Positions 15,291 through 54,969 of a stretch of DNA of 64,000 nt are shown here, in pieces. The DNA is taken from positions 608,001-672,000 of the forward strand of contig CAVPLM010000003.1 in NCBI GenBank assembly GCA_963706025.1, read 5' to 3'. Source of the stretch: an uncultured Actinomycetes bacterium. Its GTDB lineage: Bacteria; Actinomycetota; Thermoleophilia; RBG-16-64-13. The notes under the pieces are model-generated. The model made no database searches. It was not told where the DNA came from and saw nothing but the letters and a program-made list of their open reading frames with translations. The translations under genes and the position numbers were made by a program. Position 1 is the stretch's first letter; each line of letters starts with the position of its first letter.

Positions 15291-15392
15291 CCTCGGCGCT
15301 TCTAGAAGAACACCCGGCACTCCATCCCCAGAGCCGCGGTGGCTCGGGCCATCACCCGATCGGCTGTGGCAAGGCCGCGTCCGCCGCGTCGG

Positions 15393-23685: not shown

Positions 23686-23700
23686 CCGGGTGGAGGAGAT

Positions 23701-29597: not shown

Positions 29598-29604
29598 GCG
29601 ATCG

Positions 29605-30309
29605 ATGCTCGAGCTTCATGACATCCACACCTGGTATGGCGATAGCTACATACTCCAGGGTGTGACGCTGGAGGTGAAGGACGCGACCATCGTCGCCCTT
29701 CTCGGCAGGAACGGGATGGGTAAGACCACGACCATCCGCTCGATCATGGGGCTCACGCCGCCACGCATGGGAAGGATCGTGTTCAACGGCCAGGAGACCG
29801 TCGGGCTCAGTCCGCACAAGATCGCTCGGCTAGGCATCGGACTGGTTCCCCAGGGCAGGCTGATCTTCTCCTCACTCTCGGTGACCGAGAACCTGAAGAT
29901 GGCGGCGCGGGTAGGTGACAAGAAGGATCCCTGGACTCTCGAGAAGGTCTTCTCCGTATTCCCCAAGCTGGAGGAAAGGCGCAAGAACAAGGGCAATCTC
30001 CTGAGCGGCGGCGAGCAGCAGATGCTCACGATCGCCCGAGCGCTCATGACCAATCCCGATCTCGTCCTGTTCGACGAGCCTTCCGAGGGCCTTGCCCCCG
30101 TGGTGGTCGAAGAGGTGTTCAGGGTCATCGAGAACCTCAAGGCGTCCGGGCAGTCCATCCTCTTGGTGGAGCAGGACTTCGGTATGGCCATGAGCGTAGC
30201 CGACTATGCCTATATAATGAGCAAAGGCACTATCGTCTACGAATCCACGCCGGACGAACTGATCAACAACGAGAGCGTCAAGAGCGCATATCTGGGCGTG
30301 GGCGAGTGA
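29605..30309 (+). CDS. livF: LivF-like ABC ATPase
   Basis: GRNGMGKTT, VPQGR, LSGGEQQML, DEPSEGLAP. Confidence 0.93.
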   Translation: MLELHDIHTWYGDSYILQGVTLEVKDATIVALLGRNGMGKTTTIRSIMGLTPPRMGRIVFNGQETVGLSPHKIARLGIGLVPQGRLIFSSLSVTENLKMAARVGDKKDPWTLEKVFSVFPKLEERRKNKGNLLSGGEQQMLTIARALMTNPDLVLFDEPSEGLAPVVVEEVFRVIENLKASGQSILLVEQDFGMAMSVADYAYIMSKGTIVYESTPDELINNESVKSAYLGVGE

Positions 30310-30380
30310 GGTGCGGATGGAGTAGATGTCAGGACGATGGGGCGATGAGGGAAGATCCACGAAGAAGGAGGGGTGAAAGG

Positions 30381-31670
30381 ATGAACAAGAGACTTCTGAT
30401 CCTACTATTGGTAGCGGTCCTCGCGGTCAGTGTGTTCGCCGTCGCCTGCGGCGAAGAAGAGGAGACCACCACTACGGCGCCGCCCAGCAGCGAGACCACG
30501 GCACCACCGAGCAGCGAGACTACGGCGCCGCCCAGCAGCGACACTACTGTGGCGCCGAGCGGAGAACCGGTCAAGATCGGGTTCAACGAAGGCTTCACCG
30601 GCTTCATGGCCTACGACTGCGAGCTGGCCGAGAGGGGCATCAAGACCGCCTTCGCCATGCTCGACAACCAGATCCTGGGCCGGCCGATCGAGTACTTCCC
30701 CGAAGACAACGGTTCCGACCCCGTTGTGGCGGTCGACAAGGCCCGCAAACAGGTGGAGAGCGACGGGATCAACGTCATGATCGGCCCGATCTTCTCGCCT
30801 TCCGCCAAGGCGGTGGCCGACTTCCTGGGCAAGTCTACCGGCATACCGCAGATGTCCATCGTGGGGCAGCCCACGGAGAACCTGGAAACGGCCAATGGGC
30901 TGGCTTTCATTCACACCGGCTTCTTCGACTCCCATGGCTACTACTTCGGCAAGTTCCTGGCGGAGAAGGGCTACAAGACGGCCAACGTCATCAACTACGA
31001 TGACACTCCCGCTTACGCACTGACGGCCGGCCTTAAGAAGGCATTCGTCGACGAAGGTGGCGGAGAGGTGCTCAGCGAGAACTACGTGCCCCTGGACACG
31101 GTCGATTTCAGCGCCTATCTGTCGGCGATGAAGCCGGCCGACGTCACTGTTGTCTGGATCTTTGGCAACGGGGCCGTCCCCTTCGTGAAGCAGTACAACG
31201 ACTACGGCCTGACCGCACCGCTGGCCCACACGATGTCCAACAACTTCAGCGACGCCCAGTTGGCGGATTTGGGCGATCTCTCGTTGGGCATGCTGGCCTG
31301 CGACTACTACGCCTATGCGGTGGACAACCCCCTGAACGCGGAGTTCGTCGCGGCGCACCGGGAACTCTACAACGGTGAGCCGCCCACCCCGCAGGGCTAC
31401 GGGGCCTGGCAGGGCGTGATGATGTATGCCGAAGCCTTGAAGCTGACCAACGGCGACACCACTCCGGCGAAAGTGATCGAAGCCATGTCCGCCATGACCC
31501 TGGACACGCCCACCGGTAAGCTGGCGATGGTCCCCTACGAGGGGGCGTTCATCGGCACTCGCGACTTCTACATGCTAGAAGTGCAGAAGTTGGGCGATGT
31601 CTGGACCTGGGTGCCGGTCAAGACCTTCGAGAACGTCCTTCTGGGCACGCTCGACCAAGTAGTGAAATAG
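30381..31670 (+). CDS. LIV-type ABC substrate-binding lipoprotein
   Basis: MNKRLLILL...AVACG lipobox; (TTAPPSSE)x3 linker; GRPIEY..EDN; MIGP.FS; DFSAYL. Confidence 0.9.
   Translation: MNKRLLILLLVAVLAVSVFAVACGEEEETTTTAPPSSETTAPPSSETTAPPSSDTTVAPSGEPVKIGFNEGFTGFMAYDCELAERGIKTAFAMLDNQILGRPIEYFPEDNGSDPVVAVDKARKQVESDGINVMIGPIFSPSAKAVADFLGKSTGIPQMSIVGQPTENLETANGLAFIHTGFFDSHGYYFGKFLAEKGYKTANVINYDDTPAYALTAGLKKAFVDEGGGEVLSENYVPLDTVDFSAYLSAMKPADVTVVWIFGNGAVPFVKQYNDYGLTAPLAHTMSNNFSDAQLADLGDLSLGMLACDYYAYAVDNPLNAEFVAAHRELYNGEPPTPQGYGAWQGVMMYAEALKLTNGDTTPAKVIEAMSAMTLDTPTGKLAMVPYEGAFIGTRDFYMLEVQKLGDVWTWVPVKTFENVLLGTLDQVVK
30466..30560 (+). repeat. 24-bp tandem repeats encoding TTAPPSSE/D
   Basis: ACTACGGCGCCGCCCAGCAGCGAG-like unit repeated three to four times. 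Confidence 0.85.
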
Positions 31671-31867: not shown

Positions 31868-31917
31868 ACGTGACCGCACGTATCCCGCGCTGGAACGAAC
31901 GACACAAGGGGCATCTC

Positions 31918-32877
31918 GTGAAGATCGACGACGTCAAGAAGGTGGCGATTTTTGGGGCCGGCACGATGGGACCCGGCTTGGCGCAGGTGTTCGCTACCGC
32001 CGGTTACGATGTGACTATGTACTCCCGCAAGGCCGAGACCCTCGACAAGGCCATGTCTGTGGCCAAAGCGAATCTCGCCACCTTCGTCGAGAGCGGGCTC
32101 CTCTCCGAGGACGCGGTCCCCGGGGTTCTCGACCGGATCACGATTACCCAGTCGGTGGAGGAAGCCGGCAAGGACGCGGACTTCGTCATCGAGAGCATCG
32201 CCGAGAAGATGGATGCCAAAAAGGCGCTCTACGAGGAACTGGACCGCATCTGCCCCGAGAGGACCATCTTAACCAGCAATACCTCATATCTGAACATCTA
32301 CGAGGTCATGCCGGCCGGGCGGCTGCCTCAGACCGTCATCGCTCACTGGTTCGCGCCTCCGCACATCGTCCCCCTGGTCGAGGTCGTCAAGGGGCCGGAG
32401 ACGAGTCAGGAGACGGTGGACTTCGTGGTGGAGCTGCTCCAGAAGGTGGAGAGGGTGCCCACGGTGCTGGAAAGGTTCGTCCCCGGGTTCTGTATAAACC
32501 GTTTTCTACGGATCATGGGCCGCGAGATCTTCTTCCTGCTGGATAACGGCTACATGACCGCCGACCAGCTCGATCTTGCCGTGAAGGCCAGTATCGTCCC
32601 CAGGGCGATGGTGTTGGGCTTCGTCCAGCGCTACGACTTCACCGGGATCGATCTCAGCTATGGCAACCTGCAGAACAAGGATTTCATCGAGCCCCCGATC
32701 GACAACAATCCGCGCAGTTTGGTGGAACTCATGGAACGGGGTGAGCTGGGGGTGAAGAGCGGCAAAGGCTTCTTCGACTACAGCGACCGTCCCCTCGAGC
32801 AGGTCTTGAGAGAACGGGATGCTGCGCTGATCAAGGTGTTCGAAGACGTGAAGGATCTGATCTACAAACGGGTATAG
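31918..32877 (+). CDS. 3-hydroxyacyl-CoA dehydrogenase-family protein
   Basis: GAGTMGPGLA, ESIAE, SNTS, AHWFAPPHIVPLVEVV, PGFCINR, GELGVKSGKGFFDY. Confidence 0.9.
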   Translation: MKIDDVKKVAIFGAGTMGPGLAQVFATAGYDVTMYSRKAETLDKAMSVAKANLATFVESGLLSEDAVPGVLDRITITQSVEEAGKDADFVIESIAEKMDAKKALYEELDRICPERTILTSNTSYLNIYEVMPAGRLPQTVIAHWFAPPHIVPLVEVVKGPETSQETVDFVVELLQKVERVPTVLERFVPGFCINRFLRIMGREIFFLLDNGYMTADQLDLAVKASIVPRAMVLGFVQRYDFTGIDLSYGNLQNKDFIEPPIDNNPRSLVELMERGELGVKSGKGFFDYSDRPLEQVLRERDAALIKVFEDVKDLIYKRV

Positions 32878-32894
32878 GAGTCACGGGAGTCACC

Positions 32895-33749
32895 ATGAAG
32901 CTACCTGCAGGCAAAGTCATCATCACCGCCTCCCTCAACGGCGCGTTCGTCACCAAAGAGATGAACCCCAACGTCCCTGAGCAGCCGAACGAGATCGCCC
33001 AAGCCGCGCTGGACTGCTACAACGCCGGGGCCGCCATCGTGCACATCCATGCCCGCGATGAGAAAGGTCAACCCACCGGCACCAAAGAGAAGTTCGAAGA
33101 GATCATGGCTGCCGTCCGGGGCAAGTGCGGCGAGATTATCGTGCAGTTCTCCACCGGCGGAGGGGCGAACCTCACCATCGAGGAGCGCGTTCGTTGCCTC
33201 GACGCCAAACCGGAATCGGCCTCGCTCAACATGGGCACCCTCATGCGTCAGACCGGCGCCTACGCCGGCACTCCCTTCTCCAACCTCACCAAAGACATCG
33301 AGGCTTGGGCGGCCAAGATGAAGGAACTCGACATCAAGCCCGAGATGGAATGCTACTCGCAGAGCATGTACCGGGACGTGAACAATCTGATCAAAAAGGA
33401 ACTGATCAAGCCTCCCTACTACGTGAACTTCGTGCTTGGGATGATGTACCAGGGCGCCATCGAAGCGTCTCCGGAGACGCTGGTGTCCATGTACCAGTTC
33501 CTGCCCGGGAACTGCTACTTCAACTGCACCGCCACCTCCGCGGCCCAACTCCCCGTCACGACGATGGCGATGATCATGGGCGGCTGCGTTCGGGTCGGAC
33601 TCGAAGACAATATCTACTACTCGAAAGGGGCGCTGGCCACGAGCAATGCTCAATTGGTCGAGCGCTCGGCTCGGATCGCCCGGGAGCTGAACATCGAGCC
33701 CGCGACTCCCGATGAAGCCCGGGAGATCCTTGGTATCGTCAAGCGCTGA
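32895..33749 (+). CDS. beta-keto acid cleavage enzyme (BKACE / DUF849 / Kce family)
   Basis: IITASLNG, P.VPEQP.EIA, GAAIVHIHAR (HxH), STGG, SLNMG, PEMECY, VRVGLEDN, ATPDEAREILG. Confidence 0.95.
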   Translation: MKLPAGKVIITASLNGAFVTKEMNPNVPEQPNEIAQAALDCYNAGAAIVHIHARDEKGQPTGTKEKFEEIMAAVRGKCGEIIVQFSTGGGANLTIEERVRCLDAKPESASLNMGTLMRQTGAYAGTPFSNLTKDIEAWAAKMKELDIKPEMECYSQSMYRDVNNLIKKELIKPPYYVNFVLGMMYQGAIEASPETLVSMYQFLPGNCYFNCTATSAAQLPVTTMAMIMGGCVRVGLEDNIYYSKGALATSNAQLVERSARIARELNIEPATPDEAREILGIVKR

Positions 33750-33798
33750 CGGGCAGGGCCGGCAGGCAGGGCTGACAACAGAACGCCGTCAGGAAAGG

Positions 33799-34587
33799 AT
33801 GGTTGCAGCAACCATGGACGATCTGTTCTCCTTGAAGGGTAAGAACGCCGTCATCGTGGGTGGAGCCGGAGGTATCGGCCGTGGACTGGCGGAAGGGTTC
33901 GTGCGCCACGGCGCTCAGGTGGCCATCGCCGACGTCAACCTGACCGGCTTGGAAGACGCGGTCGCGGAGATCGAAGCCGCGACCGGCCAGAAGGTCAAGG
34001 CCTATCCGGTCGACACCGGCCAGGAGAGCAAAGTCCAGGAACTCGTGGCGAAAACGGTGGGCGACATGGGGCGCGTCCACGTGCTCGTCAACGCCCAGGG
34101 CTTCAATATCAAGGCGCCGGCGACGGAGTTCCCCGTCGAAGACTGGGACAGGCTCTTCTCCGTGAACGTCCGTGGAGTCATGATCTGCTGCAAGCACTTC
34201 GCGGCGCACATGGTCGAGCAGGGGGGCGGCAAGATCATCAACCTCTCGTCGATCCGGGGAGCGCGGGCGGCGTTGGGCGGCAATCTCGCCTATTGCGCCA
34301 GCAAGGGTGCCGTGGACATGCTGACCAGGCAGCTGGCGGTCGAACTGGCGTCGAAGAAGGTGCTGGTCAACGCCATTGCGCCGATCATCACCATCACGCC
34401 CATGACTGAGGAACGGGTCAGGCGGGACGCGGACCGCTACGAGAAGATGCTGGTCAACGTCCCCCTGAACCGTATGGGCACCGTCGCCGATCTGGTGGGA
34501 CCGGCGGTGTTCCTGGCCTCGGCCGCGTCCGACTTCGTAACGGGGACGATCCTGTATCCGGACGGCGGGACGATGGCTTTTGTGTGA
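33799..34587 (+). CDS. short-chain dehydrogenase/reductase
   Basis: VGGAGGIG, VNAQG, IINLSS, YCASK, VNAIAP, DGG. Confidence 0.93.
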   Translation: MVAATMDDLFSLKGKNAVIVGGAGGIGRGLAEGFVRHGAQVAIADVNLTGLEDAVAEIEAATGQKVKAYPVDTGQESKVQELVAKTVGDMGRVHVLVNAQGFNIKAPATEFPVEDWDRLFSVNVRGVMICCKHFAAHMVEQGGGKIINLSSIRGARAALGGNLAYCASKGAVDMLTRQLAVELASKKVLVNAIAPIITITPMTEERVRRDADRYEKMLVNVPLNRMGTVADLVGPAVFLASAASDFVTGTILYPDGGTMAFV

Positions 34588-34645: not shown

Positions 34646-35470
34646 ATGCCAAGACCACGCGTGATGTCCGAGCAACATGAGAAGACGGCGAGCGCCGGTG
34701 ACGGTGCTTTCATCGTCCGGGCCCTGGCCAAAGGGCTCGCGGTGCTGGGGCTGTTCGACGCGGAGAACCGCGATTGGACCCTGGACGAGATCGCGGAGGG
34801 AGCCGGTCTTCCCAGGATGACCGCGTATCGCATGATCCGGACCATGGAAGCGGCGGGTTACCTGGTCCGGGACCCCGTGACCAGTCGCTACCATCTCGGC
34901 CCCGCTCTGTTGGCGACCACCTACATCTCAGAGACCTACTCGGAACTCGTCGCCATCGCGCGGCCCTACCTGCGCGACCTGGCTGCGGAGACGGGGGAGT
35001 CGGCCACCCTGGCAGTGGAGGTGGACGCAGTCGCGGTCAGCGTGGATACGGTGGACACCGCCCGTCCCTTCAGAAGAGAGGTGGCGCAAGGACGGATCAT
35101 CGGCGATACGGCCAACGCGCACGGCAAGGTGTTCGCGGCCTTCAAGTCCGAGGCCGAAAAGGCGGAGATACTCGCCCTGCCGCGTGAACAGACGACGCCC
35201 CACACCATCACCGATCCGGCAGCGCTCGCCGCCGAACTGGAGCTCGTTATACGGGAGGGGATCGCCTTCGACCTCGAGGAGCGGAACATCGGCACGTGTG
35301 CCGTGGCCGCCCCCGTGCGCGACCAATTGGGCAAGGTGATCGCGTCCATATCGCTGGTCGTCCCCACGGGGCGCTTCGGTGACGAGGAGAGATTGCGCTT
35401 TGTACAGGCCACGAAGACCGCCGCCGCTTCTCTTTCTGCCTTTCTGGGCTACTCGAACCGAGAGGGCTAG
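34646..35470 (+). CDS. IclR-family regulator
   Basis: VRALAKGLAVL..F; TAYRMIRTM; HGKVF; GIAFDLEE...GTCAVAAPV. Confidence 0.93.
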   Translation: MPRPRVMSEQHEKTASAGDGAFIVRALAKGLAVLGLFDAENRDWTLDEIAEGAGLPRMTAYRMIRTMEAAGYLVRDPVTSRYHLGPALLATTYISETYSELVAIARPYLRDLAAETGESATLAVEVDAVAVSVDTVDTARPFRREVAQGRIIGDTANAHGKVFAAFKSEAEKAEILALPREQTTPHTITDPAALAAELELVIREGIAFDLEERNIGTCAVAAPVRDQLGKVIASISLVVPTGRFGDEERLRFVQATKTAAASLSAFLGYSNREG

Positions 35471-35529: not shown

Positions 35530-35567
35530 GAAGCCCCGGGGCCGGCTAACGCCGGCCCCGGGGCTTC
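35530..35567. terminator. hairpin between convergent genes
   Basis: GAAGCCCCGGGGCCGGC-TAAC-GCCGGCCCCGGGGCTTC. Confidence 0.75.
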
Positions 35568-35607: not shown

Positions 35608-37827
35608 CTAGATCTCCTGCATCATGGTGGTGGGCACGAAACCGTACTCCTCGTTGCGGAAGACCTCTTCCTTCAGCTCTTCGTCCTTGGCCTTGTACAC
35701 CTTGCAGAGCAGGCAGGTCAGGTCCGGTGAGCCGTACATGGGGTCTAGGTGGTCGTTGCTCGTCAGGACGTTCGGGTTGGAGATCCAGATGCCGTGGTAG
35801 CCCTCGGCCGGCTCCTCCGGGTAGAAGCAGTTGGCCGTGGCCATCAAGACGCCCTTCTTGATGCCGGGGAAGCAACGCAGCTTCTGCCTGATCCTTCCTC
35901 GGGGCGACTCGATCCAGACGATGTCGCCGTCCTCGACGCCGTAGAGCTCTGCCGTCTCCGGATGGAGCTGGCACGTCGGGAACTCCATGAAGCTGCGCAG
36001 CCACGGGATGTTGCGGTACTGCCCGAGGAAATAGAAGGGCTGGCGGTAGCCGCTGCTCATCACGATGGGGTATTCCTTGTACAGCTCGGGGGTCGAGACA
36101 GGGCTTTCCCCGGGCTCGCTATAGACCGGCAGGGGATCGTACCCAAGAGACTCCAGGTGATTCGAGTGGAACTCGAACTTACCCGAGGGGGTCGGGAAGC
36201 CGCCGCCCTCTCTCCAGTAGTCGGTCTTGTACTTGTAATAAACCTGATCGGGGCCCCAGCAGCCGCTCACGAGCTTCTCGCTGAAATCTTTCCACTTCAG
36301 TGGGCCGCCATCGGGGCTCTCTCCCCTCCTGAGCTCGTAGTCGAGCATATCTTCGACGTTGTCCCACCACTTGTCGGGAACGACCCGCCTGCCGATCTCG
36401 TTGAAGATCCAAGCGTCGGACATAGCCTCACCGGGCGGATCGACGACTTTGTTGTGAGCTTCGATCATGAAGCGTGGGTGCATGTCGTAGACGTCGTCCA
36501 ACTCCAGCCAGTGGGCGGCCGGCAGCACGATGTCGGCCGCTTCGGCCATCGGGCCCATGAAGAGATCGGTGTGCGACATGAACTCGACCTTCTCGATGGC
36601 CGCGACAACCTCTTTGGTGTTGGCCATATGCACGATCTGCTGCCCGCCGACACTGAACCACACCTTGACGGGCGCTTCGCCGGCAAGGAGCTTCTTGACC
36701 ATGGTGTCGGGGTTACACGTGCGGGTGGCGCCCATCTTGAACCTATCGCCACCGATGATCTTGGCCTTCATCTCGTCGGTGATCGGCAGCTCGAGGTTGA
36801 AGTCCTCGATGAGGCCGGTGTCCGGCAGCACCCAGCTGATCATGCTGCCTGGGCGCTCGATGTTGCCGGCGAGGCCCATGAGGCAGGTTATGGCCCGGAG
36901 GGTGTGGCCACAGTTGGCCTGCCGCTCGAGGGAGCTGCCTACCTGGATGCAGCCCGGCGTGTCGACGGCCCACATCCGGGCCGCTTCGACGACCTGCTCC
37001 TTAGGGATCCAGCAGGTGTCGGACACCTTCTCGGGCGTCCACTCCTTGACGCGCTCGCGCAGCTCGTCGACGCCGAACGTCCAGTTGTCGACGAACTCCT
37101 TGTCCCAGAGCTCCTCTTCGAAGATGACGTTCATCATGCCCATGGCCAGCGCGCAGTCCGTTCCCGGCCGGGGCTGGATCCAGAGGGAGGCGCGGGTCGC
37201 ATATGCACTTGCCCGCGGGTCGATGATGATGAGGTTCTTGCAGTAGTCCACGGAGCGCATGAACCAGTAACCCATCTCGGAGTCGGCGCTGCTGATCTCG
37301 AGCTGCTTCGCCCACATGATCTGGGTCTTCGGGAACTCGCCGCCCCAGCCGTGGTAGTCGCAGTACAGGCGTCCATAGCCCGTCACGAGGGCGTAGAGGC
37401 CAAGGCGGGGGCTGTGGCATACGTAGCCCGGCGTGATGGCGTTGCCTGTGCTGAGGGAGCGCGCCAGCCGCATCGTGTAGCGGTTATACCCGCGCCCCGT
37501 CCCCTGGGAGATGGCAATGGTCTCCGGTCCGAAGTCCTTGATCGCCGCCTTCATCTTGTCTGCGATCGTGTCGAGGGCCTCATCCCACGAGATCCTCTGC
37601 CACTTACCGTGGCCTTTGGGTCCCACCTGCTTCATGGGGTACTTGAGGCGATAGGGGTTGTCGATGTGCTGGATGCTCGAGAGACCCTTGGAGCACATCG
37701 TGCCCCCGGTCAACGAGTCGGGATTGCCCTCGATGTGGATGACGACCCCGTCTTCCTTGGTCACTCTGACGCCGCAGCCACCATGGCAGCTCTTGCATGT
37801 GGAAAGTACGACTTCTCTTTTTGCCAT
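35608..37827 (-). CDS. Mo/W-bisPGD oxidoreductase catalytic subunit, acetylene hydratase / catechol dehydroxylase clade, no Tat signal
   Basis: MAKREVVLSTCKSCHGGC...MCSKG [4Fe-4S]; RLKYPMK..G.KG.GKWQRISWDEALD; GYVCHSPR putative Cys ligand; PRPGTD.AL; GFPTPSGKFE; LHPETA; GAGGAG RBS. Confidence 0.9.
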   Translation of the reverse strand: MAKREVVLSTCKSCHGGCGVRVTKEDGVVIHIEGNPDSLTGGTMCSKGLSSIQHIDNPYRLKYPMKQVGPKGHGKWQRISWDEALDTIADKMKAAIKDFGPETIAISQGTGRGYNRYTMRLARSLSTGNAITPGYVCHSPRLGLYALVTGYGRLYCDYHGWGGEFPKTQIMWAKQLEISSADSEMGYWFMRSVDYCKNLIIIDPRASAYATRASLWIQPRPGTDCALAMGMMNVIFEEELWDKEFVDNWTFGVDELRERVKEWTPEKVSDTCWIPKEQVVEAARMWAVDTPGCIQVGSSLERQANCGHTLRAITCLMGLAGNIERPGSMISWVLPDTGLIEDFNLELPITDEMKAKIIGGDRFKMGATRTCNPDTMVKKLLAGEAPVKVWFSVGGQQIVHMANTKEVVAAIEKVEFMSHTDLFMGPMAEAADIVLPAAHWLELDDVYDMHPRFMIEAHNKVVDPPGEAMSDAWIFNEIGRRVVPDKWWDNVEDMLDYELRRGESPDGGPLKWKDFSEKLVSGCWGPDQVYYKYKTDYWREGGGFPTPSGKFEFHSNHLESLGYDPLPVYSEPGESPVSTPELYKEYPIVMSSGYRQPFYFLGQYRNIPWLRSFMEFPTCQLHPETAELYGVEDGDIVWIESPRGRIRQKLRCFPGIKKGVLMATANCFYPEEPAEGYHGIWISNPNVLTSNDHLDPMYGSPDLTCLLCKVYKAKDEELKEEVFRNEEYGFVPTTMMQEI

Positions 37828-37856
37828 CAGTGTCTCCTCAACACCAAGCTGGTGCT

Positions 37857-38828
37857 CTAGTAGGCGTGGCCTTTGGGTAGGAGGGGCCTGTAGATGCCGA
37901 CCTTCAGTACGCCATACTTGAGGGAGAACGCCCCGATGGTATGGCAGATGATCGCGAAGATGAGCAGTCCTGTCGCGGCCTCTCCGGCGAAGTAGCTGAC
38001 GATCGATATCACGAGCGGAACGATAATACCCAGCCCAACGATGCCCAGCCAGAACACCCAGGCCAGTTTTCCACGGATGAGCTCTTTCACCGACAACTCG
38101 GCTGTGACCGACTGATAGTTCGCGTTCACCAGATAGGACAAGATCAGCAGGGCGTTTATGATCAGCATGATCCGGGTGACCGACTCTGCCGGTCCGATCA
38201 CGTCTTCGCCGGTAACCAGGCCGACGCCCATGATCAAGGCCAAGCCGTCCGCGATGCCCATGAAGAGGAACACGATGGGCAGTAGCCCAGTGTTCCAGAA
38301 GGGGACGCTCTTGCAGTAGCTCATGGCGAATCCGCAGTAGACCCCGGTGAGGACCACGAAGATGCCGGCCAGGGCCATGAAGACCCAGTTGGCGAAGTGG
38401 ACGGCGTCGTAGGCCGAGCCGGAGACCACATCGTAAGCAAGCAGGTACAGCAGCACCAGCTGAATGGCTCCCAAGGCCACAAAGATCACGGTGAAGACTA
38501 TTCCCCGGGCAAACCACGAAGTCTTCCACGCCTTGCTGAAGGGCGGGAAGGTCTTCCAGAAGCGCAGAGGCTTGCCGAGGTAGGCAAAATGCAGGGGCAG
38601 CTTGAAGAACACGATCATGATCCAGCCGAAAAGCGCTCCCCACCAGGCGGTCTTGGGAGCGGTCTCGGTGAAGAATAGCGACACCAGATAGAGACCGGAA
38701 CCGAGAGCCGAGAAGACCTCCGCGATCCAGACGAGTATTCCCTTGCCGTCGATCCATTCGGTCTGAGCCATGGGTTTGATCATCCACTCATGGGGGACCA
38801 TCCATTGACGGGCGGTTCTTGCGTTCAT
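37857..38828 (-). CDS. NrfD/PsrC/DmsC-family membrane anchor
   Basis: About 8 hydrophobic segments; LHFAYLGKPLRFW (HLG.P.R-like), SWFARG, VPFWN, FWLGIV. Confidence 0.88.
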   Translation of the reverse strand: MNARTARQWMVPHEWMIKPMAQTEWIDGKGILVWIAEVFSALGSGLYLVSLFFTETAPKTAWWGALFGWIMIVFFKLPLHFAYLGKPLRFWKTFPPFSKAWKTSWFARGIVFTVIFVALGAIQLVLLYLLAYDVVSGSAYDAVHFANWVFMALAGIFVVLTGVYCGFAMSYCKSVPFWNTGLLPIVFLFMGIADGLALIMGVGLVTGEDVIGPAESVTRIMLIINALLILSYLVNANYQSVTAELSVKELIRGKLAWVFWLGIVGLGIIVPLVISIVSYFAGEAATGLLIFAIICHTIGAFSLKYGVLKVGIYRPLLPKGHAY

Positions 38829-38844
38829 GTGGCCACTCCCCTAC

Positions 38845-39621
38845 CTAGTCCGCGTTCTTCTTGGCGAGTTTTTCCTTGGACGGAGCGTAGACGGTGCTCA
38901 AGTGCTGGATGTGGCTGCCAGTTTGAGCCTCGATAGGCGCCTTGTTTGAAGGAGCGCCCCCGAGCTTGTAGTCGATGTAGTAAACGGACGGCTCGGTCCC
39001 GTACTCCGCGTGCAGAACGAATCCGGCCTTGTCCCGGATCAGCTTGGAAACGTTGCTGTTGGGATCCTCCAGGTCGCCAAAGGTGAGAGCGCCCGCCTGG
39101 CAGATGTTCACGCAGGCCGGCGTGGCGGCCCGGTCGACACCGGGCACCAGGCCTTTTTCAAGACCGGCGTCGATCCGCTCGGCACAGAAGTTGCACTTCT
39201 GCGTCGTCCCGACCTGGTGCGGATAGAGCTCTTTCCCTTTCTTCTCGAAACCGGTCTGATCGTGCTCGGGGAAGTAGTTCGGGTTCCTCTTTCTGGAAAG
39301 GTACGTGCGGTTCTGATAGGGGCAGGCGATAACGCAGTAACGGCAGCCAAAGCACTTGTCGGAATCGATCGCGACGATACCGTCCTCGCGCTTGTGGGAT
39401 GCCTCAGTGGGGCAGGCATCCACGCACGGCGCCTCCTTGCACTGATTGCATCGGACCGGATAGGTGGTGACGTCGACAGTGATGCCGTCGTCCACTTCGA
39501 GGGCGATGAGCCTCGGCCAGGTCACCCGAAGCGGTAGGAAGTGCTCGATCCTGCACGCGACCACGCACGCGTGGCAGCGGATGCACTTCGCGAGGTTGAT
39601 CACCATTCCATATCTCGCCAT
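38845..39621 (-). CDS. 4Fe-4S dicluster electron-transfer subunit (DmsB/NrfC type)
   Basis: MARYGMVINLAKCIRCHACVVAC; CNQC..APCV..CP; CFGCRYCVIACPY; KCNFC...PACV..C. Confidence 0.95.
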   Translation of the reverse strand: MARYGMVINLAKCIRCHACVVACRIEHFLPLRVTWPRLIALEVDDGITVDVTTYPVRCNQCKEAPCVDACPTEASHKREDGIVAIDSDKCFGCRYCVIACPYQNRTYLSRKRNPNYFPEHDQTGFEKKGKELYPHQVGTTQKCNFCAERIDAGLEKGLVPGVDRAATPACVNICQAGALTFGDLEDPNSNVSKLIRDKAGFVLHAEYGTEPSVYYIDYKLGGAPSNKAPIEAQTGSHIQHLSTVYAPSKEKLAKKNAD

Positions 39622-39937
39622 CGGCCCCTCCTATGTCCCGTTAGGCTTTCGTGTGCAGTTGCCCGCCCCGAGACCGCGCTCAAGGGGGGTTTCCCAGTGC
39701 GCTTATGGATCGAACCACACTGATTGTAGCACAGACAATGATATCGACATAATGCACAACGTTAAATACAATACCGTTTGTAGACGTGTGTGCTCCCCGG
39801 GTGCGGCGGGCGCCACAGGGACCCCTGCGCCCGCTCAAGAGGTTTGCGCGGCGCCCGCGGAGCAGTTAGGATGAGGGCGTGGGACGCGCTCGTGGGACGA
39901 AAGTGGGCTCGATGTCCGAGATGGGAGGTACTCTCCA

Positions 39938-41818
39938 ATGGCATACGGTTACGCGGGAAAACTGCTCTTTGTCGACCTGACCGCCGGTACCATCCGCGAA
40001 GAAACGCCCGAAGAAGGTTTCTATCGCGAATGGATCGGAGGGACCGGCCTGGGGGCCAGGGTCATGATGGAGCGCACCAAGCCGGGTATCGATCCCCTGG
40101 GCCCCGAGAACATGCTGGCCTTCACGACGGGACCGCTCACCGCGACGGGCGTCTACGGCGGGGGCAGGTATACCGTCACCGCCAAGTCACCATTGACAGG
40201 GGCCTGGGCCGACTCCAACTCCGGCGGATACTTCGGGCCGGAATTGAAGAACGCCGGCTACGATGGGGTCTTTTTCACGGGCGCCGCCGAGCGCCCTGCC
40301 TGCTTGGTCATCGATGCCGGGCGGGCGCGGCTGATCGAGGCCGCGCAGCTCTGGGGGAAAGACACCTATGAGACCGACGACGCGCTGCAGGCCGAGCTGG
40401 GAGATCCGGGGAGCTGGAGGATCGCCTGCATCGGTCCGTCGGGCGAGCAGTGTTCCCTGCTGGCCGGGATCGTCAACGAGAAGGGCAGGATAGCCGCCCG
40501 CTCCGGCGTGGGGGCGGTCATGGGCTCGAAGAAGCTGAAGGCGATCGCGGTCCGAGCCGCCAAGGGCGCCCGCATCGGCGTGGCCGACAAGGCCGGGCTC
40601 AAAGCCGCACAGAAGGAGTACGCTGAGGTCCTCAAGAGCCATCCCTTTCACTCCGGGCTCACCGCTGCCGGTACGGGTGGAAGCACGAGCTTCCTGCTCT
40701 CCATCGGAGACTCCCCGGTGGACAACTGGACACGTACGGGCAGCGACGCCCTGCCCGGATGCAGCAGTCTCGACGGCCCCAAAATGGACGTCTACAAACT
40801 GAAGGCCTACGGTTGTAGCACCTGTCCCGTCCGCTGCGGCGCGCTGGTACGGATCGACGAAGGCCCGTTCGCCAGCCAGGACGAGCTTCACCGGCCCGAA
40901 TACGAGACGCTGGCCGCTCTCGGGGTCAACTGCCGCAACGACAATGTGCAGGCTGTCATACGTGCGAACGAGATCTGCAATCGCTACGGTCTCGACACCA
41001 TGGGCGTGGGCAATAGCATCTCGTTCGCGATGGAGTGCTACGAGAACGGTCTCATCGGCTCGAGCGATACGGGGGGTTTGGAGCTCACTTGGGGGCACGC
41101 GGAGGCCCTCGTCGCTCTCACCGAGCTGATCGCAAGGCGGGAGGGTCTTGGCGCAGCCTTGGCCGACGGCTCCAAGGTGGCGTCCCAGCAGATAGGCCGG
41201 GGCAGTGAGGAGTACGCCATGCACGTGGCCGGCCGAGCGGTTCCCTATCACGACCCTCGCATGGCGCCCAGCAGCGGCACCTTCTATATCGGTGATGCCC
41301 AGCCGGCCCAACATCTGGGACCCCAAAGCATGGCGTTGCTCGAGCAAGGGGCGCCTCTGGGGCCCGACCCCCTGCTGCAACCGGGCGATTCGGGCGAGCT
41401 CTATGGTGACTACGACAAGAAGGGCGACATCTACGCCCGCGGAGCGGCCTGTATCCAGCTGCTGAGCTCGGCCGGACTCTGTGCGCTGTATGCTCATTTC
41501 TACACTCCCCCGTTGGTCGAGCTCTTGCGGCCGGTCACCGGTTGGGACATCGACTGGAGCGAGGGGCTGAAGACGGGAAGGCGGATCCTCACTCTGCGGC
41601 AGGCGTTCAACCACCGCGAGGGGCTCACTCCGGACGAGTTCCGGCTGCCTAAGAGATTCGAGGCGCCGTTGAGCGTCGGACCCGCCGCGGGACATGCGAT
41701 CCCCTTCGCCCACTTGAGGGACAAGTACTTCGAGACCATGGGCTGGGATCCGCGGACGGGCAGTCCCCTGCCGGAGACGCTCTCCGATCTGGGTATAGAC
41801 CCTTCGCTGGTGGTTTGA
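39938..41818 (+). CDS. tungsten aldehyde:ferredoxin oxidoreductase (AOR family)
   Basis: GYAGKLLFVDLT, GG.GLG, KSPLTG, CIGPSGE, ARSGVGAVMGSKKLKAI, CSTCPVRC, PEYET, GLDT. Confidence 0.94.
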   Translation: MAYGYAGKLLFVDLTAGTIREETPEEGFYREWIGGTGLGARVMMERTKPGIDPLGPENMLAFTTGPLTATGVYGGGRYTVTAKSPLTGAWADSNSGGYFGPELKNAGYDGVFFTGAAERPACLVIDAGRARLIEAAQLWGKDTYETDDALQAELGDPGSWRIACIGPSGEQCSLLAGIVNEKGRIAARSGVGAVMGSKKLKAIAVRAAKGARIGVADKAGLKAAQKEYAEVLKSHPFHSGLTAAGTGGSTSFLLSIGDSPVDNWTRTGSDALPGCSSLDGPKMDVYKLKAYGCSTCPVRCGALVRIDEGPFASQDELHRPEYETLAALGVNCRNDNVQAVIRANEICNRYGLDTMGVGNSISFAMECYENGLIGSSDTGGLELTWGHAEALVALTELIARREGLGAALADGSKVASQQIGRGSEEYAMHVAGRAVPYHDPRMAPSSGTFYIGDAQPAQHLGPQSMALLEQGAPLGPDPLLQPGDSGELYGDYDKKGDIYARGAACIQLLSSAGLCALYAHFYTPPLVELLRPVTGWDIDWSEGLKTGRRILTLRQAFNHREGLTPDEFRLPKRFEAPLSVGPAAGHAIPFAHLRDKYFETMGWDPRTGSPLPETLSDLGIDPSLVV

Positions 41819-41877
41819 GGAAGTTGTTCTCTTTAGTTACGAGTACCCCTGCGGTGACCGGAAAGGATTAAGAAGCC

Positions 41878-43254
41878 ATGATCTCTGAAGCCGAACTGAA
41901 AGAGCTTTCGTTCCCCGATGCTCCCCAGATGGTCTGTGAGGTCCCTGGGCCCCGAGTGATGGCGCTCATGGCCGAATCGGCCAAATATGAAGCCTTCACC
42001 CGAGGGGGCGGGGGATTCCCGGTCATCTTGGAGCACGGCAAGGGAGCCACGGTCAAAGACGCCGACGGCAACCTCTACATCGACATGGCGGCCGGCGTGG
42101 CCGTGAACGCGGTGGGGCGGGGCCACCCCAAGATACTGGAAGCCATCCAGCGCCAGTCGGGCGTCATCATGCACACCACCGACATCACCAACCCCAAGAG
42201 GATCGAACTTGCGAAGAAGGTCTCCGGAGTCATGCCCCCCGGGCTGCGGGGCAACTGCCACACCTCCTTCTTCCAGGCCGGTTCCGATGCGGTAGAGACG
42301 GCCATCAAGTTCTCCCGGCGTCACACCGGCCGCACCCAGATCATCGCCTTCCAGGGCGCCTACCACGGCGTGTGGTGCGGCACCTCGGCTCTCACCACCG
42401 GGTACAACTACCGGCACGGCTGGGGCCCTCTGATCGCCGGGGTCCAGCACCTACCGTACGCCTACTGCTACCGCTGCCCCTTCAACATGACCTATCCGGC
42501 CTGCGATGTGCAGTGCGCTCAGTACGTGGACTACGTCTTGAACACGCCCTATACGGCCGCCGATGACGTCGCCGCCGTCATCATCGAATCCGAGCAGGGC
42601 GAGGGGGGCTACGTGGCCCCGCCGCCCGAGTTCTTCCAGATCATAAAGGCAGCCTGCGAGAAATACGGCTGCCTCTATGTGGCCGACGAGGTGCAGTCCG
42701 GGGCCGGCCGCACCGGCAAGATGTGGTGCATCGAGCACGCGGGTGTGGAGCCGGACATGCTCACCTGGGGCAAGGGCATGGGTGGGGACATACCCATGGC
42801 CGGGATCACCTACCGGGCCGATATCGAAAAGAGTCTGTCCGAAGGCTCGCAGCCCAGCACCTTCGCCGGCAACGCTCTGGGGTGTGAGGTCTGCATGACC
42901 AACATCGACCTTATCACCGACCCGGAGATGGATCTCATGGGCCGGGCGGCCACGCTTGGGGAGGAGATCCGGGGACTGTTCACCGAGGCCATGAAGTCGG
43001 TCACGGCCATCGGCGACGTACGCGGAAGAGGTCTCATGATCGGGGTCGAGATCGTGGCTGACCAGAAGACCAAGGAGCCTCCGGCACCCGCCAAGGTGGG
43101 CGAGCTGGCCATGAAGCTCCTCAACCGCGGGATCCTGATAACGCCGTGCGGCCGCTACGGCAACGTGTTCCGCTTCATGCCGCCACTCACCATTCCCCGA
43201 GACTACGCCCTCAAGGCCACCGACGTCATGATCGACGTCCTCAAGGAGTGGTAG
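41878..43254 (+). CDS. class III PLP aminotransferase (omega-amine/GABA-AT type)
   Basis: DADGNLYIDM, GSDAVETAIK, GAYHG, ESEQGEGG, ADEVQSGAGRTG, WGKGMGG (PLP Lys), STFAGN, VRGRGLMIG. Confidence 0.94.
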   Translation: MISEAELKELSFPDAPQMVCEVPGPRVMALMAESAKYEAFTRGGGGFPVILEHGKGATVKDADGNLYIDMAAGVAVNAVGRGHPKILEAIQRQSGVIMHTTDITNPKRIELAKKVSGVMPPGLRGNCHTSFFQAGSDAVETAIKFSRRHTGRTQIIAFQGAYHGVWCGTSALTTGYNYRHGWGPLIAGVQHLPYAYCYRCPFNMTYPACDVQCAQYVDYVLNTPYTAADDVAAVIIESEQGEGGYVAPPPEFFQIIKAACEKYGCLYVADEVQSGAGRTGKMWCIEHAGVEPDMLTWGKGMGGDIPMAGITYRADIEKSLSEGSQPSTFAGNALGCEVCMTNIDLITDPEMDLMGRAATLGEEIRGLFTEAMKSVTAIGDVRGRGLMIGVEIVADQKTKEPPAPAKVGELAMKLLNRGILITPCGRYGNVFRFMPPLTIPRDYALKATDVMIDVLKEW

Positions 43255-43354
43255 CAGGCTGTGGGGCTCTTCGTCTAGCTGCGCACAATACTGAAGCGAA
43301 GCAGTCTTCGTGCGGAGTCGGCCGCCGAGATCCGCTACCAGGAAGGGAGCGAAT

Positions 43355-44281
43355 GTGTCCCTGAAGTACAAGGTGTTCTTGCATAGCTACCTCGGCTTCA
43401 ACAGCAACTCCACCTTGTTCTACGGGGAGAAGGATGCAGTTCTGATCGATGCCTCTCAACTCCTGAGCGACACCCACAAGATGGTCGCCCAGATGATCCC
43501 CATGAGGAAGAACCTGACCCACATCTACGTCTCGCACTTCCACCCGGACCATCATTTCGGGCTGGGCGTGCTGCAGAGCGCCTTCCCGCAGGCGAAGATC
43601 GTGGCCCTGCCGAGTGTCGTCAAGGACGTGGTCTTCACCTCCAGCGACAAAGTCGACATGTGGGCCATCGATCGCTTTGGCCCCGACATCCCCACCAAGA
43701 CCACGATCCCCATGCCGCTCCACGAGCCTCGTCTCGAGCTGGAAGGCCAGGAGCTGCTTTTCTCGGACGACTGGGAGGGAGATAGCATCAACAACTCCGT
43801 GGTCTGGGTCCCCTCGATCGGGGTTGCCTGCGCGACGGACGTGGCCTTTCACGACTGCAACCTGTGGCCCATCGAGAGCAACGTCGAGCGGCGGGTGAGA
43901 TGGAGGAGCTCGATCAGCAAGCTCATGGACTTCGGCCCCCGGATCGTCATCCCCGGCCACCACGACGAGGCCAAGTTGCGGATCCTCGAGGAGGTCCAGG
44001 AGGACTCCTCCCGCACGTACACCGATTGCGTCGATTGGTCGCTTCGATACCTGGACGTCTATGACGAGGTGTACAGCACCGCTACGAACGGCGCTGAGCT
44101 GGTCGAAGGCATGAACAAGTACTACGGGGACGTGAAAGCCGAGGACTTCGCCCTCCACTGGCAGGCGAGACTGCTCTTCCCGCGTAGCTGCCCCGACTGG
44201 TTCACTCCGCTGCCGGGAGAACCCGGGAAGATCTTTCTGAATCCCAGCGGCGGGTTCGACGGCGATCCACCCAAGGAATAG
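43355..44281 (+). CDS. MBL-fold metallo-hydrolase
   Basis: VLID, SHFHPDHHFG (HxHxDH), TD, VIPGH. Confidence 0.9.
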   Translation: MSLKYKVFLHSYLGFNSNSTLFYGEKDAVLIDASQLLSDTHKMVAQMIPMRKNLTHIYVSHFHPDHHFGLGVLQSAFPQAKIVALPSVVKDVVFTSSDKVDMWAIDRFGPDIPTKTTIPMPLHEPRLELEGQELLFSDDWEGDSINNSVVWVPSIGVACATDVAFHDCNLWPIESNVERRVRWRSSISKLMDFGPRIVIPGHHDEAKLRILEEVQEDSSRTYTDCVDWSLRYLDVYDEVYSTATNGAELVEGMNKYYGDVKAEDFALHWQARLLFPRSCPDWFTPLPGEPGKIFLNPSGGFDGDPPKE

Positions 44282-44347
44282 GCTCCGTCGTTCTGTTCGG
44301 GAGGGAGATGGACCGCACGCACTTCCCACGAGAAGGGGGGCAAAGAG

Positions 44348-45163
44348 ATGCAGTTGGAAGGTAGGGTGGCACTCATCACCGGGGGCGGCACGGGCATCGG
44401 CGCAGCGGTCGCCGAGCGCTTCGTGGCGGAGGGTGCACGAGTATGCATCACCGGCCGGCGCCGGGAGATGCTGGAGAAGGTGGCAGAGTCGTTGCCCCCC
44501 GGAAGCGTCACCGTGTTCGCCGGCGACGTCAGCGAGGACGGGGCTGCGGAGCGCATGGTCGACGCGGCTCTCGGCATCGGCGGCCGGCTCGATATCCTGG
44601 TCAACAACGCGGCGATCGAGCACAACGCGAACATCGTCGAGATGGACCCGGCGGTCTGGCGGCAGACGCTCGAGGTCAACCTCACCGGGCCGTTCCTCAT
44701 GATGAAAGCAGCCATCCCGAGAATGATCGACGGGGGTGAAGGCTCGATAATCAATGTGTCCTCCCTGGCCGGAGTGGTGGCCGTACCCGGCGCGCCGGCC
44801 TACTGCGCCACGAAGGCTGGGATAATCCATCTCACCAAGCAGGTGGCGCTTGACTATGGCAAGCACAACGTGCGCTGCAACGTCATCTGCCCGGGTCCCA
44901 TACGGACCGGCATGCTCGAGATGAATTTCAAGCCCTTGGCGGAGCTCCTGAAGACCGACATGGACGGAGTGTTCGAAAAGGTGCGCGAGAACGTGCCCTT
45001 GCGCCGCATCGCCAACCCGGCCGACCTCGCCGGCGTGTTTGTCTTCCTGGCGAGTGACGATTCGCGCTTCATGACCGGCTCGACGGTGCTTGCCGACGGC
45101 GGCGTGCATTTCGTCGACGCGTTCGCCGCGGGGGTGGGCCATTACGGGGCGACCTGGGGGTAG
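44348..45163 (+). CDS. short-chain dehydrogenase/reductase (probably NADP-preferring)
   Basis: TGGGTGIG, ITGRR, VNNA, IINVSS, YCATK, CPGPI.T, DGG. Confidence 0.93.
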   Translation: MQLEGRVALITGGGTGIGAAVAERFVAEGARVCITGRRREMLEKVAESLPPGSVTVFAGDVSEDGAAERMVDAALGIGGRLDILVNNAAIEHNANIVEMDPAVWRQTLEVNLTGPFLMMKAAIPRMIDGGEGSIINVSSLAGVVAVPGAPAYCATKAGIIHLTKQVALDYGKHNVRCNVICPGPIRTGMLEMNFKPLAELLKTDMDGVFEKVRENVPLRRIANPADLAGVFVFLASDDSRFMTGSTVLADGGVHFVDAFAAGVGHYGATWG

Positions 45164-45497
45164 AGGTTGGGGGTCATGTGGGTCCTCTTCCAGCTGCGCA
45201 CAAAGGCCTGTGCGACTCTTCCAGAGAACCCACATGACCTCCCCAGACTGAAAGATGAGGAGCAGGGCCCGGCGCCAAGACGCGACGCGCGCAAGTCACG
45301 CACGTGCAGGGTCCCGGGGATCTGACGTGGCGCGGTTCATGGCCCTTTGAAGGAAGAATCGCACCCGCGCTGCTGGGACAAAGGGCCATGACCGAAGCTT
45401 GTGCGACCCTTCCGGGGAACCCGTTCGGCCCCTCTTCTTGATGGCAGGCGGGCTGAAGAGCCTCAGAGGACCACGCCGGTCCATTTCCGGCCGTAGA

Positions 45498-50437: not shown

Positions 50438-50538
50438 CGCAATCGTCGTCCTTTCGCTTTTCCGTGGTTGACGTGCTCGGAATCTTTCTAGTACGAGGGG
50501 AATCCCATCCCTCTTACTACCGTAACCACCGGGAATAA

Positions 50539-51414: not shown

Positions 51415-51501
51415 GTATCTCCTGTAGATCAGAACCGACCTGCAAGGCAGGCGTGCATCTTGCAAATGGACCGTGCCTACTCTACGATATTAGCAGTAAT
51501 G

Positions 51502-51516: not shown

Positions 51517-51574
51517 ATATCGTTTTGTCCCTCGGACTGCCGACCATCTCTGATCTCAGGGGAGCTGATGATTG

Positions 51575-54100: not shown

Positions 54101-54104
54101 GATC

Positions 54105-54944: not shown

Positions 54945-54969
54945 TGACAAACGACCCGGGAAAGGTCTC

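Follow-up and report, generated by a model that had tools for sequence, protein, structure and literature searches.

A three-gene operon for a membrane-anchored molybdoenzyme

The window analysed here is a stretch of 64,000 nucleotides (positions 608,001 to 672,000 of contig CAVPLM010000003.1, GenBank assembly GCA_963706025.1), and all positions below are window coordinates. At 35608-39621 on its minus strand lies an operon whose three co-directional genes occupy this interval exactly and encode an iron-sulfur (Fe-S) subunit, an NrfD-type membrane anchor and an acetylene-hydratase-like catalytic subunit. We discuss it as a candidate quinone-linked enzyme of polyhydroxybenzene metabolism.

The Fe-S electron-transfer subunit (38845-39621, minus strand) has 258 amino acids (aa), with 16 Cys in four [4Fe-4S] motifs and no twin-arginine translocation (Tat) leader. 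It is followed by the NrfD/PsrC-type anchor (37857-38828, minus strand; 323 aa, eight predicted helices) and by the catalytic subunit (35608-37827, minus strand; 739 aa), which would hold molybdenum (Mo) or tungsten (W) in a bis-molybdopterin guanine dinucleotide (bis-MGD) cofactor. The intergenic gaps are 16 and 29 nt. An open reading frame (ORF) listed at 35608-38787 (1059 aa) is a run-on overlapping nrfD in another frame; the true start of the catalytic gene is the ATG at 37827, with GAGGAG ahead of it, and the product begins MAKREVVLSTCKSCHGGC (MAKREVV...).

A promoter-like match and a GC-rich hairpin flank the three-gene unit on either end. The sigma-70-like match (39738-39765, minus strand), called from the consensus alone with three matches found in the region against 1.0 expected, lies upstream of the Fe-S gene in a divergent region shared with a gene for aldehyde:ferredoxin oxidoreductase (AOR). 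The hairpin of 17 bp (15 of them GC; 35530-35567, minus strand) is found 41 nt past the stop of the catalytic gene and is a likely terminator.

The catalytic subunit and its relatives

The catalytic subunit carries the Pfam domains Molybdop_Fe4S4 (residues 6-57), Molybdopterin and Molydop_binding, and it belongs to the MopB/bis-MGD superfamily by matches to PF00384 (5e-42), PF01568 (2e-16) and PF04879 (1.8e-11), all above the cut-offs. Its [4Fe-4S] Cys are at positions 11, 14, 18 and 45, with Lys47 nearby in sequence, and the predicted metal ligand is Cys137, with His15 and His138 flanking the site. The two motifs highlighted in the initial annotation, CKSCHGGC (residues 11-18) and GYVCHSPR (residues 134-141), are both present and, in the 77 relatives aligned, residues C11, C14, H15, C18, C45, K47, Y135, C137, H138, S139, P140 and R141 are invariant. 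Three further members without the N-terminal motif, two of them cut by locus ends, were dropped from this count. In the alignment to acetylene hydratase (2e7z), Cys137 falls on the ligand Cys141, His138 on Ile142 and His15 on Asp13, the catalytic Asp of that enzyme. The Cys metal ligand of acetylene hydratase is therefore matched by a residue that is invariant in the family.

The kinship with acetylene hydratase that had been proposed from the sequence was upheld by comparison with solved structures. The best sequence match was 2e7z (E 4.2e-86), followed by FdhF (2.1e-50) and PsrA (1.5e-44). The AlphaFold model of the catalytic subunit, with a predicted local distance difference test (pLDDT) score of 93.6, matched the folds of bis-MGD enzymes, the highest being 2e7z (template modelling (TM) score 0.87, root-mean-square deviation 2.7 Å, 28% identity), followed by ArrA (TM 0.82), PsrA (0.81) and the transhydroxylase (0.75).

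This kinship is one within a large superclade. In a library of 1.84 billion representatives clustered at 50% identity, 1486 proteins matched the catalytic subunit at E up to 1e-30; among the matches listed, the nearest full-length representative was 53% identical and the others at most 41%. At least 150 of these 50%-identity representatives outscored the 293 bits of acetylene hydratase against the window protein and, judged by such scores, acetylene hydratase is not an especially near relative. The residue after the second Cys was His in 47 of 137 full-length representatives and Asp in 5 of 137, and an N-terminal RR motif was present in 10 of 137. As His in this position is common in the superclade, it is not diagnostic.

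A FastTree phylogeny of 152 rows was built from representatives 660-900 aa long and 20 of the 77 family members. A branch with support of 100 set the window protein and its 20 relatives apart; P0124 was their sister, on a long stem. The next clade, with support of only 77, includes the Tat-bearing protein P0228 from Raoultibacter (Eggerthellaceae), which is 30-31% identical and is the closest named Eggerthellaceae relative found. A representative of the hydratase type (P0213, 646.5 bits to 2e7z) was at a path distance of 2.53, compared with 1.27 for P0124.

With acetylene hydratase as the closest solved fold, the enzyme could be imagined as a non-redox hydratase of the same kind, in which the Fe-S and NrfD subunits serve only as a tether. 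This is hardly credible, as Asp13 is replaced by His in 77/77 relatives and Ile142 also by His, the true acetylene-hydratase-type protein P0213 is distant in the tree, and a hydratase would have no use for a conserved anchor or a conserved wire of 16 Cys.

A second possibility is that the enzyme reduces or oxidises a non-aromatic substrate (an oxyanion of sulfur, selenium or arsenic, polysulfide, or sulfite as in SoeABC) and that the aromatic genes around it are merely adjacent. It could be argued from the good fold matches to PsrA and ArrA (TM 0.81-0.82), from an inward architecture like that described for SoeABC (PMC8076601) and from the best NCBIfam name for the catalytic subunit, thiosulfate reductase PhsA. 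However, PhsA scored 245.2 bits where its cut-off would require 694, and the scan of this subunit gave no match above the cut-off of any NCBIfam model. Acetylene hydratase is clearly nearest by sequence and fold, and the linkage to transhydroxylase-like and ring-cleavage genes recurs across several phyla, which makes a non-aromatic substrate very improbable.

The Fe-S subunit, the anchor and membrane orientation

The two partner subunits named in the initial annotation were recognised by their Pfam domains (4Fe-4S dicluster domains and NrfD, respectively). The best NCBIfam model for the Fe-S subunit was DsrO, at 173.9 bits under a cut-off of 200. All 16 Cys of this subunit are invariant in the 22 relatives aligned, in all of which 12 residues precede the first Cys. 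The catalytic subunit has 10 residues ahead of its first Cys in the window protein and 9-17 in 77/77 relatives. When a Tat leader was looked for in the operon subunits, none was seen, nor does the N-terminus of the catalytic subunit have an RR motif, in agreement with the Tat-less catalytic subunit described before.

For the anchor, the family hydropathy profile shows eight hydrophobic segments, whose boundaries were placed by eye since an automatic pass missed helix 1. Lys and Arg are concentrated on the N-terminus, loops 2-3, 4-5 and 6-7 and the C-terminus: on the side of the termini there are 18 in the window protein against 2 on the other side, and the family means over 72 sequences are 17.0 against 1.2. 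As the other NrfD complex of the host is also Tat-less, the control was E. coli NrfD, which has the Tat-bearing NrfC as its partner; it gave 6 against 7 in the same alignment.

In PsrC, both termini are described as lying on the P-side, which is the side of the Fe-S subunit and of the quinone site, and PsrB binds PsrC there, while the complex of SoeC is the one expected to be inverted (PMC8076601). Taken together with the positive-inside rule, the charge bias of our anchor and the topology of PsrC indicate that the anchor would be inverted, with its termini in the cytoplasm and the Fe-S and Mo subunits on that side too. An inward-facing membrane bis-MGD complex is thus very probable as a prediction, and the cytoplasmic placing first suggested for this enzyme is borne out to that extent by the absent leaders and the anchor charges. 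The anchor residues K76, H80 and S104, which lie close to where the quinone pocket would be, vary in no more than one of 72 sequences. The complex is probably coupled to the quinone pool.

Comparison with known systems

Acetylene hydratase of Pelobacter acetylenicus shares with the operon enzyme an N-terminal [4Fe-4S] domain, the Cys metal ligand, a cytoplasmic location and the lack of a signal peptide. It is, however, a soluble non-redox monomer, whereas the operon enzyme comes with a four-cluster Fe-S partner and an anchor (75/80 loci), and it has Asp13 and Ile142 where the operon enzyme has His15 and His138.

The gut catechol dehydroxylases of the Eggerthellaceae (Dadh, Cadh and Hcdh; Dodh and Cldh) are described as bis-MGD enzymes with acetylene hydratase as the closest characterised relative (PMC7028382). 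By the same account, the Eggerthella lenta enzymes act on hydroxyls of aromatic rings, carry Tat signals and have a 4Fe-4S protein and a membrane anchor as partners, whereas those of Gordonibacter are Tat-less, small, probably soluble and without an anchor (PMC7028382). The earlier statement that enzymes of both genera pair with Fe-S and anchor subunits thus holds for E. lenta but, as to the anchor, fails for Gordonibacter. Compared by these descriptions only, the operon enzyme shares with the E. lenta type the acetylene hydratase as nearest characterised bis-MGD relative and the neighbouring 4Fe-4S protein and anchor, but not the Tat signal or the much larger size. Gordonibacter Dodh is described as small, Tat-less and soluble, with a small 4Fe-4S partner and an adjacent major facilitator superfamily transporter; the operon differs from it, again by description, in having an NrfD anchor, a 258-aa four-cluster partner and ATP-binding cassette (ABC) or tripartite ATP-independent periplasmic (TRAP) importers. 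The family therefore unites a small Tat-less catalytic subunit with an anchor, a combination that differs from both dehydroxylase types.

In architecture, the operon resembles SoeABC of Allochromatium vinosum and Aquifex aeolicus, which is described as having a Mo subunit, a four-cluster Fe-S subunit, an eight-helix NrfD-like anchor and no signal peptides (PMC8076601). As in SoeABC, both soluble subunits lack a signal peptide and the anchor is predicted to be inverted relative to PsrC. The likeness is one of described architecture, as SoeABC belongs to another catalytic clade and its substrate is sulfite. PsrABC/PhsABC (2vpw) has the same subunit set, an NrfD/PsrC anchor and a fold match of TM 0.81, but it is Tat-exported and faces the periplasm, whereas the operon is Tat-less with the catalytic gene last (B-C-A order). 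The AthL/BthL transhydroxylase of Pelobacter acidigallici (4v4c) is a cytoplasmic bis-MGD enzyme acting on ring hydroxyls, as the operon enzyme may be. It would be a partner rather than a family member, with a Ser ligand, no [4Fe-4S] cluster in the alpha subunit and TM 0.75 to our model. The operon is thus predicted to encode a quinol oxidoreductase of the complex iron-sulfur molybdoenzyme type, with the rare inward orientation expected for SoeABC and a catalytic subunit from the acetylene hydratase/dehydroxylase radiation.

Distribution and conservation of the family

In a scan of one genome per species, relatives were found in 235 species genomes, of which 80 loci were kept for the locus counts given here. 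The family is tight, with 66-94% identity across Actinomycetota, Desulfobacterota, Acidobacteriota, SAR324, Pseudomonadota and Dehalococcoidales. Records of Actinomycetota, Actinomycetes and Gaiellales were 86-94% identical to the window protein and those of Thermoleophilia 80-85%; Desulfobacterales, Desulfatiglans, SAR324, Acidobacteriota and Proteobacteria followed at 74-80%, with a few Dehalococcoidales at 74-79%, and Dehalococcoidales and Chloroflexi records otherwise at 66-71%. Of the 739 positions of the catalytic subunit, 312 show at least 97% identity across the family. The order Fe-S - NrfD - Mo was found in 75 of 80 loci, the remaining five being cut by contig ends. Within a sample of 301 Actinomycetota genomes, the family occurred only in the genome of the window and in one genome of the same taxonomic family.

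In the literature searched, we found no description of this Mo enzyme family. On Chloroflexi scaffolds, genes termed "acetylene hydratase-like" were noted next to pyrogallol hydroxytransferases by Hug et al. (2013).

Gene neighbourhood in the window

Downstream of the operon and convergent with it is a gene for an IclR-type regulator (34646-35470, plus strand), a relative of which is near the operon in 21 loci. Beyond it are 3-hydroxyacyl-CoA-dehydrogenase-like (HCDH), BKACE and short-chain dehydrogenase/reductase (SDR) genes (31870-34587, plus strand) and an ABC importer (26928-31670, plus strand) with two permeases, two ATPases and a Peripla_BP_6 binding protein, in which the permeases (26928-27788 and 27788-28849) and the first ATPase (28836-29597) were labelled from position and conserved relatives in related loci. 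The published phloroglucinol route is described as using SDR, "cyclase", 3-hydroxyacyl-CoA-dehydrogenase-like and BKACE enzymes (PMC10470551), and the HCDH/BKACE/SDR set resembles the ring-reduction and beta-keto-acid-cleavage part of it. As NCBIfam gave no equivalog for the SDR, HCDH, BKACE, metallo-beta-lactamase (MBL) or transhydroxylase-like genes, we do not equate the neighbours with the phloroglucinol pathway in the strict sense.

On the other side, transcribed divergently from the operon, are the AOR gene (tungsten family) and a class-III aminotransferase gene (39938-43254, plus strand). This adjacent AOR could be taken as a sign that a hydratase forms an aldehyde product. We rejected this reading of it, as the AOR gene travels with the aminotransferase gene and the pair recurs beside the operon in Actinomycetota loci only. 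Genes for an MBL-fold hydrolase (43310-44281) and a second SDR (44348-45163) follow on the plus strand. A 664-aa ORF on the opposite strand (43241-45235, minus), which these two genes overlie, matched no Pfam family and is probably a spurious ORF of high-GC DNA.

Two transhydroxylase-like sets complete the neighbourhood. The first, TH1 (46991-50440, minus strand), has a beta subunit (46991-47809; E 4.6e-55 to 4v4c_B) and an alpha subunit (47810-50440; 408.9 bits to 4v4c_A). The second, TH2, preceded by a second IclR gene (50539-51465, minus strand), is a close homologue of pyrogallol-phloroglucinol transhydroxylase and is followed by a thiolase gene (51572-56169 together, plus strand). Its alpha subunit (51572-54100) scored 883.7 bits to 4v4c_A and has an AhtL-like first domain, and its beta subunit (54105-54944) bears a C-terminal CarboxypepD_reg-like domain.

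Gene neighbourhood in related loci

In 26 of 80 loci, the operon is followed within 700 bp downstream by a transhydroxylase-like alpha gene on the same strand; if the whole flanks are counted, such a gene is present in 29 of 80. Linkage of the operon to an orthologue of TH1 (62-93% identity) was seen in 15 loci, which come from Thermoleophilia, Acidobacteriota, Desulfatiglandales and close Actinomycetota; the Desulfobacterales-type downstream gene, like TH1, is distant from the Pelobacter enzyme (412.8 bits). The HCDH/BKACE/SDR/IclR neighbourhood is restricted to Actinomycetota loci, with HCDH in 17/80, and in one locus (L041) two cyclase genes lie upstream of the operon along with those for IclR and SDR. 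Recurrent neighbours also include genes for a TRAP transporter, MoaA, MobB and a sigma-54 activator. The presence of TRAP or ABC importers near the operon suggests an imported substrate.

Two neighbour sets were seen in the Dehalococcoidales loci. One comprises cytochrome b, UbiA, a radical-SAM gene and a UbiE-like methyltransferase; the other has a carboxylesterase, a URO-D-type methyltransferase, a Zn-dehydrogenase and LuxR. Genes of the transhydroxylase-like family PF21423 were present, 2-10 each, in 5/5 Dehalococcoidales/Chloroflexi genomes tested, compared with 0/14 control genomes, while BKACE was absent from four of these five and present in one. Among the 301 Actinomycetota genomes, PF21423 occurred in three, two of which are both carriers of the operon family; as these two carriers are kin, this co-occurrence counts as one observation.

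The gene context bears on a stand-alone respiratory catechol dehydroxylase, which would use dopamine, 3,4-dihydroxyphenylacetic acid (DOPAC), hydrocaffeate or catechin-type acceptors and be unrelated to the transhydroxylase route. The esterase and O-demethylase-like neighbours in Dehalococcoidales loci would free catechols, and four of five Dehalococcoidales genomes are without BKACE; the placing in the acetylene hydratase/dehydroxylase superclade, and anchor and Fe-S partners as described for Dadh, Cadh and Hcdh of E. lenta (PMC7028382), would also suit it. Nevertheless, we regard such an enzyme as decidedly unlikely. The E. lenta enzymes are described as Tat-exported and far larger (Hcdh 133.9 kDa) than the Tat-less 739-aa protein, the best named Eggerthellaceae relative is only 30-31% identical, a transhydroxylase-like gene is directly downstream in 26/80 loci, and the operon sits in a trihydroxybenzene island in the window. 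The transhydroxylase-like context points to tri- or tetrahydroxybenzene metabolism rather than to catechols of the dopamine or DOPAC type, and the reading of the initial annotation is shifted accordingly.

Two observations on related loci can be added. In L059, L060, L062 and L064 (~12100-15500 each) genes for a cytochrome b561-like protein, a UbiA prenyltransferase and a UbiE-like methyltransferase come after the operon, with a radical-SAM/SPASM gene in addition in L059; this Chloroflexi/Dehalococcoidales cassette looks like one for a prenylated quinone-like carrier. In L027 (1663-6226, plus strand) there is a row of Fe-S (214 aa), NrfD (292 aa) and transhydroxylase-like (883 aa) genes, also in B-C-A order, which may be a membrane-anchored version of a transhydroxylase-like enzyme.

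The host genome

The metagenome-assembled genome of the host (3.66 Mb, 92% completeness, 7.3% contamination) is that of an uncultured environmental member of the Actinomycetota, in line with the suspicion that it is not a gut member of the Coriobacteriia. It contains 21 full-length transhydroxylase-like alpha genes, a count that is approximate given the 7.3% contamination, and this set is a large paralogue expansion. Five of them are in tandem on one contig (C17:25360-41469), and another genome in this taxonomic family contains 15 matches to PF21423.

The complex itself is present in one copy, together with one 37%-identical paralogue. There are two NrfD complexes in all, the second (G000 C5:987166-991416, plus strand) having a Mo subunit of ~898 aa, a Fe-S subunit of 212 aa and NrfD in A-B-C order, with both soluble subunits Tat-less. 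NuoH and a NiFe hydrogenase are encoded, while the genome search gave no match to COX1 or cytochrome bd and none to NarG above the cut-off.

Proposed function and direction of the reaction

We propose a heterotrimeric membrane enzyme in which an inverted NrfD-type anchor would exchange electrons with the menaquinone pool and the four-cluster Fe-S subunit would wire the anchor to the acetylene-hydratase-like Mo/W-bis-MGD subunit in the cytoplasm. With quinol as the reductant, the catalytic subunit would take a ring hydroxyl off an imported polyhydroxybenzene such as pyrogallol, hydroxyhydroquinone or tetrahydroxybenzene, or a carboxylated form. The complex may act in series with transhydroxylase-like enzymes that shift hydroxyls round the ring, and its product may go into a reductive ring-cleavage route of the phloroglucinol type; in Dehalococcoidales, the substrate could alternatively serve simply as an electron sink. 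That the site of action is a ring hydroxyl of a polyhydroxybenzene, in either direction, seems to us somewhat probable. The whole statement, with the reductive direction as given, is tentative, and our confidence in it is a little short of even.

The reductive direction is favoured for several reasons. The characterised redox-active relatives of acetylene hydratase are, as described, reductive dehydroxylases (PMC7028382), and the host has quinone reducers and few quinol sinks. In addition, most Dehalococcoidales carriers are without the ring-cleavage marker BKACE, and some of their operons resemble a self-contained electron-delivery chain.

Several observations weigh against this proposal. A haem-less, cytoplasm-facing quinol oxidase would have no obvious energy conservation of its own, and the transhydroxylase relatives of the resorcinol-hydroxylase type are oxidative and require an electron acceptor. 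SdhA/FrdA-like genes in the host could provide a further quinol sink, which leaves an oxidative role conceivable. The positive-inside rule gives a prediction, and the E. coli control was only mildly opposite. The BKACE protein of the window is under both NCBIfam equivalog cut-offs (296 against 382; 220 against 430), and a cyclase gene is absent from the window, six being found elsewhere in the genome, the nearest ~265 kb away; the neighbours can therefore be assigned to the phloroglucinol route only approximately. Finally, no transhydroxylase-like gene is adjacent to the operon in the Dehalococcoidales loci (~30/80).

The oxidative direction is a serious rival, unlikely as it appears to us. 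The complex would hydroxylate a di- or trihydroxybenzene with water and pass the electrons to menaquinone; for example, it could make the tetrahydroxybenzene co-substrate that transhydroxylases require, or convert resorcinol or catechol to a trihydroxybenzene that is then isomerised by transhydroxylase-like enzymes. The evidence from architecture and context is shared with the reductive reading. One complex beside 21 full-length transhydroxylase-like genes in the genome is what would be expected of a shared helper enzyme, the near-identity of 312/739 positions across phyla fits one small universal substrate, and the SdhA/FrdA-like genes could accept the electrons. Related bis-MGD phenol hydroxylases also exist, such as resorcinol hydroxylase (PMC10100899, PMC10084136). 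However, the known phenol hydroxylases are placed in the Ser-ligated transhydroxylase clade, not in the Cys-ligated acetylene hydratase clade (PMC10100899), and the known redox-active relatives in the latter clade are described as reductases (PMC7028382). A host without oxidase or NarG matches would have no high-potential acceptor, and menaquinone is, by a rough estimate, a poor oxidant for ring hydroxylation. The membrane subunit of the resorcinol cluster is described as a DoxX-type protein (PMC10084136) and belongs to another family than the one discussed here.

A further scheme, which we consider a long shot, is a split transhydroxylase. The transhydroxylase-like alpha-beta enzyme would hydroxylate the ring with water and pass two electrons via its beta clusters to the operon Fe-S subunit, the acetylene-hydratase-like site would remove a different hydroxyl, and the inverted NrfD anchor would only buffer the pair against the quinone pool. 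A predicted complex between a co-operonic Fe-S subunit and transhydroxylase beta subunit scored 0.42, compared with 0.03 for the best of three controls, which is a weak hint. Individual runs gave 0.29, 0.47 and 0.42, with at least 52% of contacts shared and a partner pLDDT of at least 88. Among solved complexes, 58 of 80 reached the mark used for such predictions, as did 2 of 110 mismatched pairs; at 0.60 or below, only seven of the 80 solved complexes did so, and both mismatches. By the tool's own rating, such a pass is wrong more often than right. If the scheme were true, ring hydroxyls could be moved with neither oxygen nor a tetrahydroxybenzene co-substrate, and a single hub would be shared by the 21 transhydroxylase-like paralogues of the host genome.

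To our knowledge, the known anaerobic routes for trihydroxybenzenes rely on one soluble transhydroxylase. If our proposal holds, the family would add a quinone-linked step to this chemistry and would extend the enzyme class of the gut catechol dehydroxylases to abundant uncultured environmental anaerobes. It would also place an inward-facing NrfD-anchored molybdoenzyme beside SoeABC and raise the question of how energy is conserved. How plant polyphenols are turned over without oxygen in peat, soil and sediment matters for carbon storage, as in the "enzyme latch" idea (PMC10470551). The operon provides a concrete, clonable target for assays.

Other genes in the window

Further from the operon, a URO-D-type methyltransferase gene lies beside one for a B12-binding corrinoid protein (15393-17151, minus strand), as in anaerobic O-demethylases of methoxylated aromatics, and the pair is adjoined by an EthD-domain gene (17280-18182). 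An ADP-forming acyl-CoA synthetase (ATP-grasp_5, Succ_CoA_lig) and then an indolepyruvate-type 2-oxoacid:ferredoxin oxidoreductase pair are encoded at 21499-26393 (plus strand). At the edge of the island are a B3/4-domain gene (56312-57112, minus strand) and a LarA-like gene of the lactate racemase family (57271-58551, plus strand).

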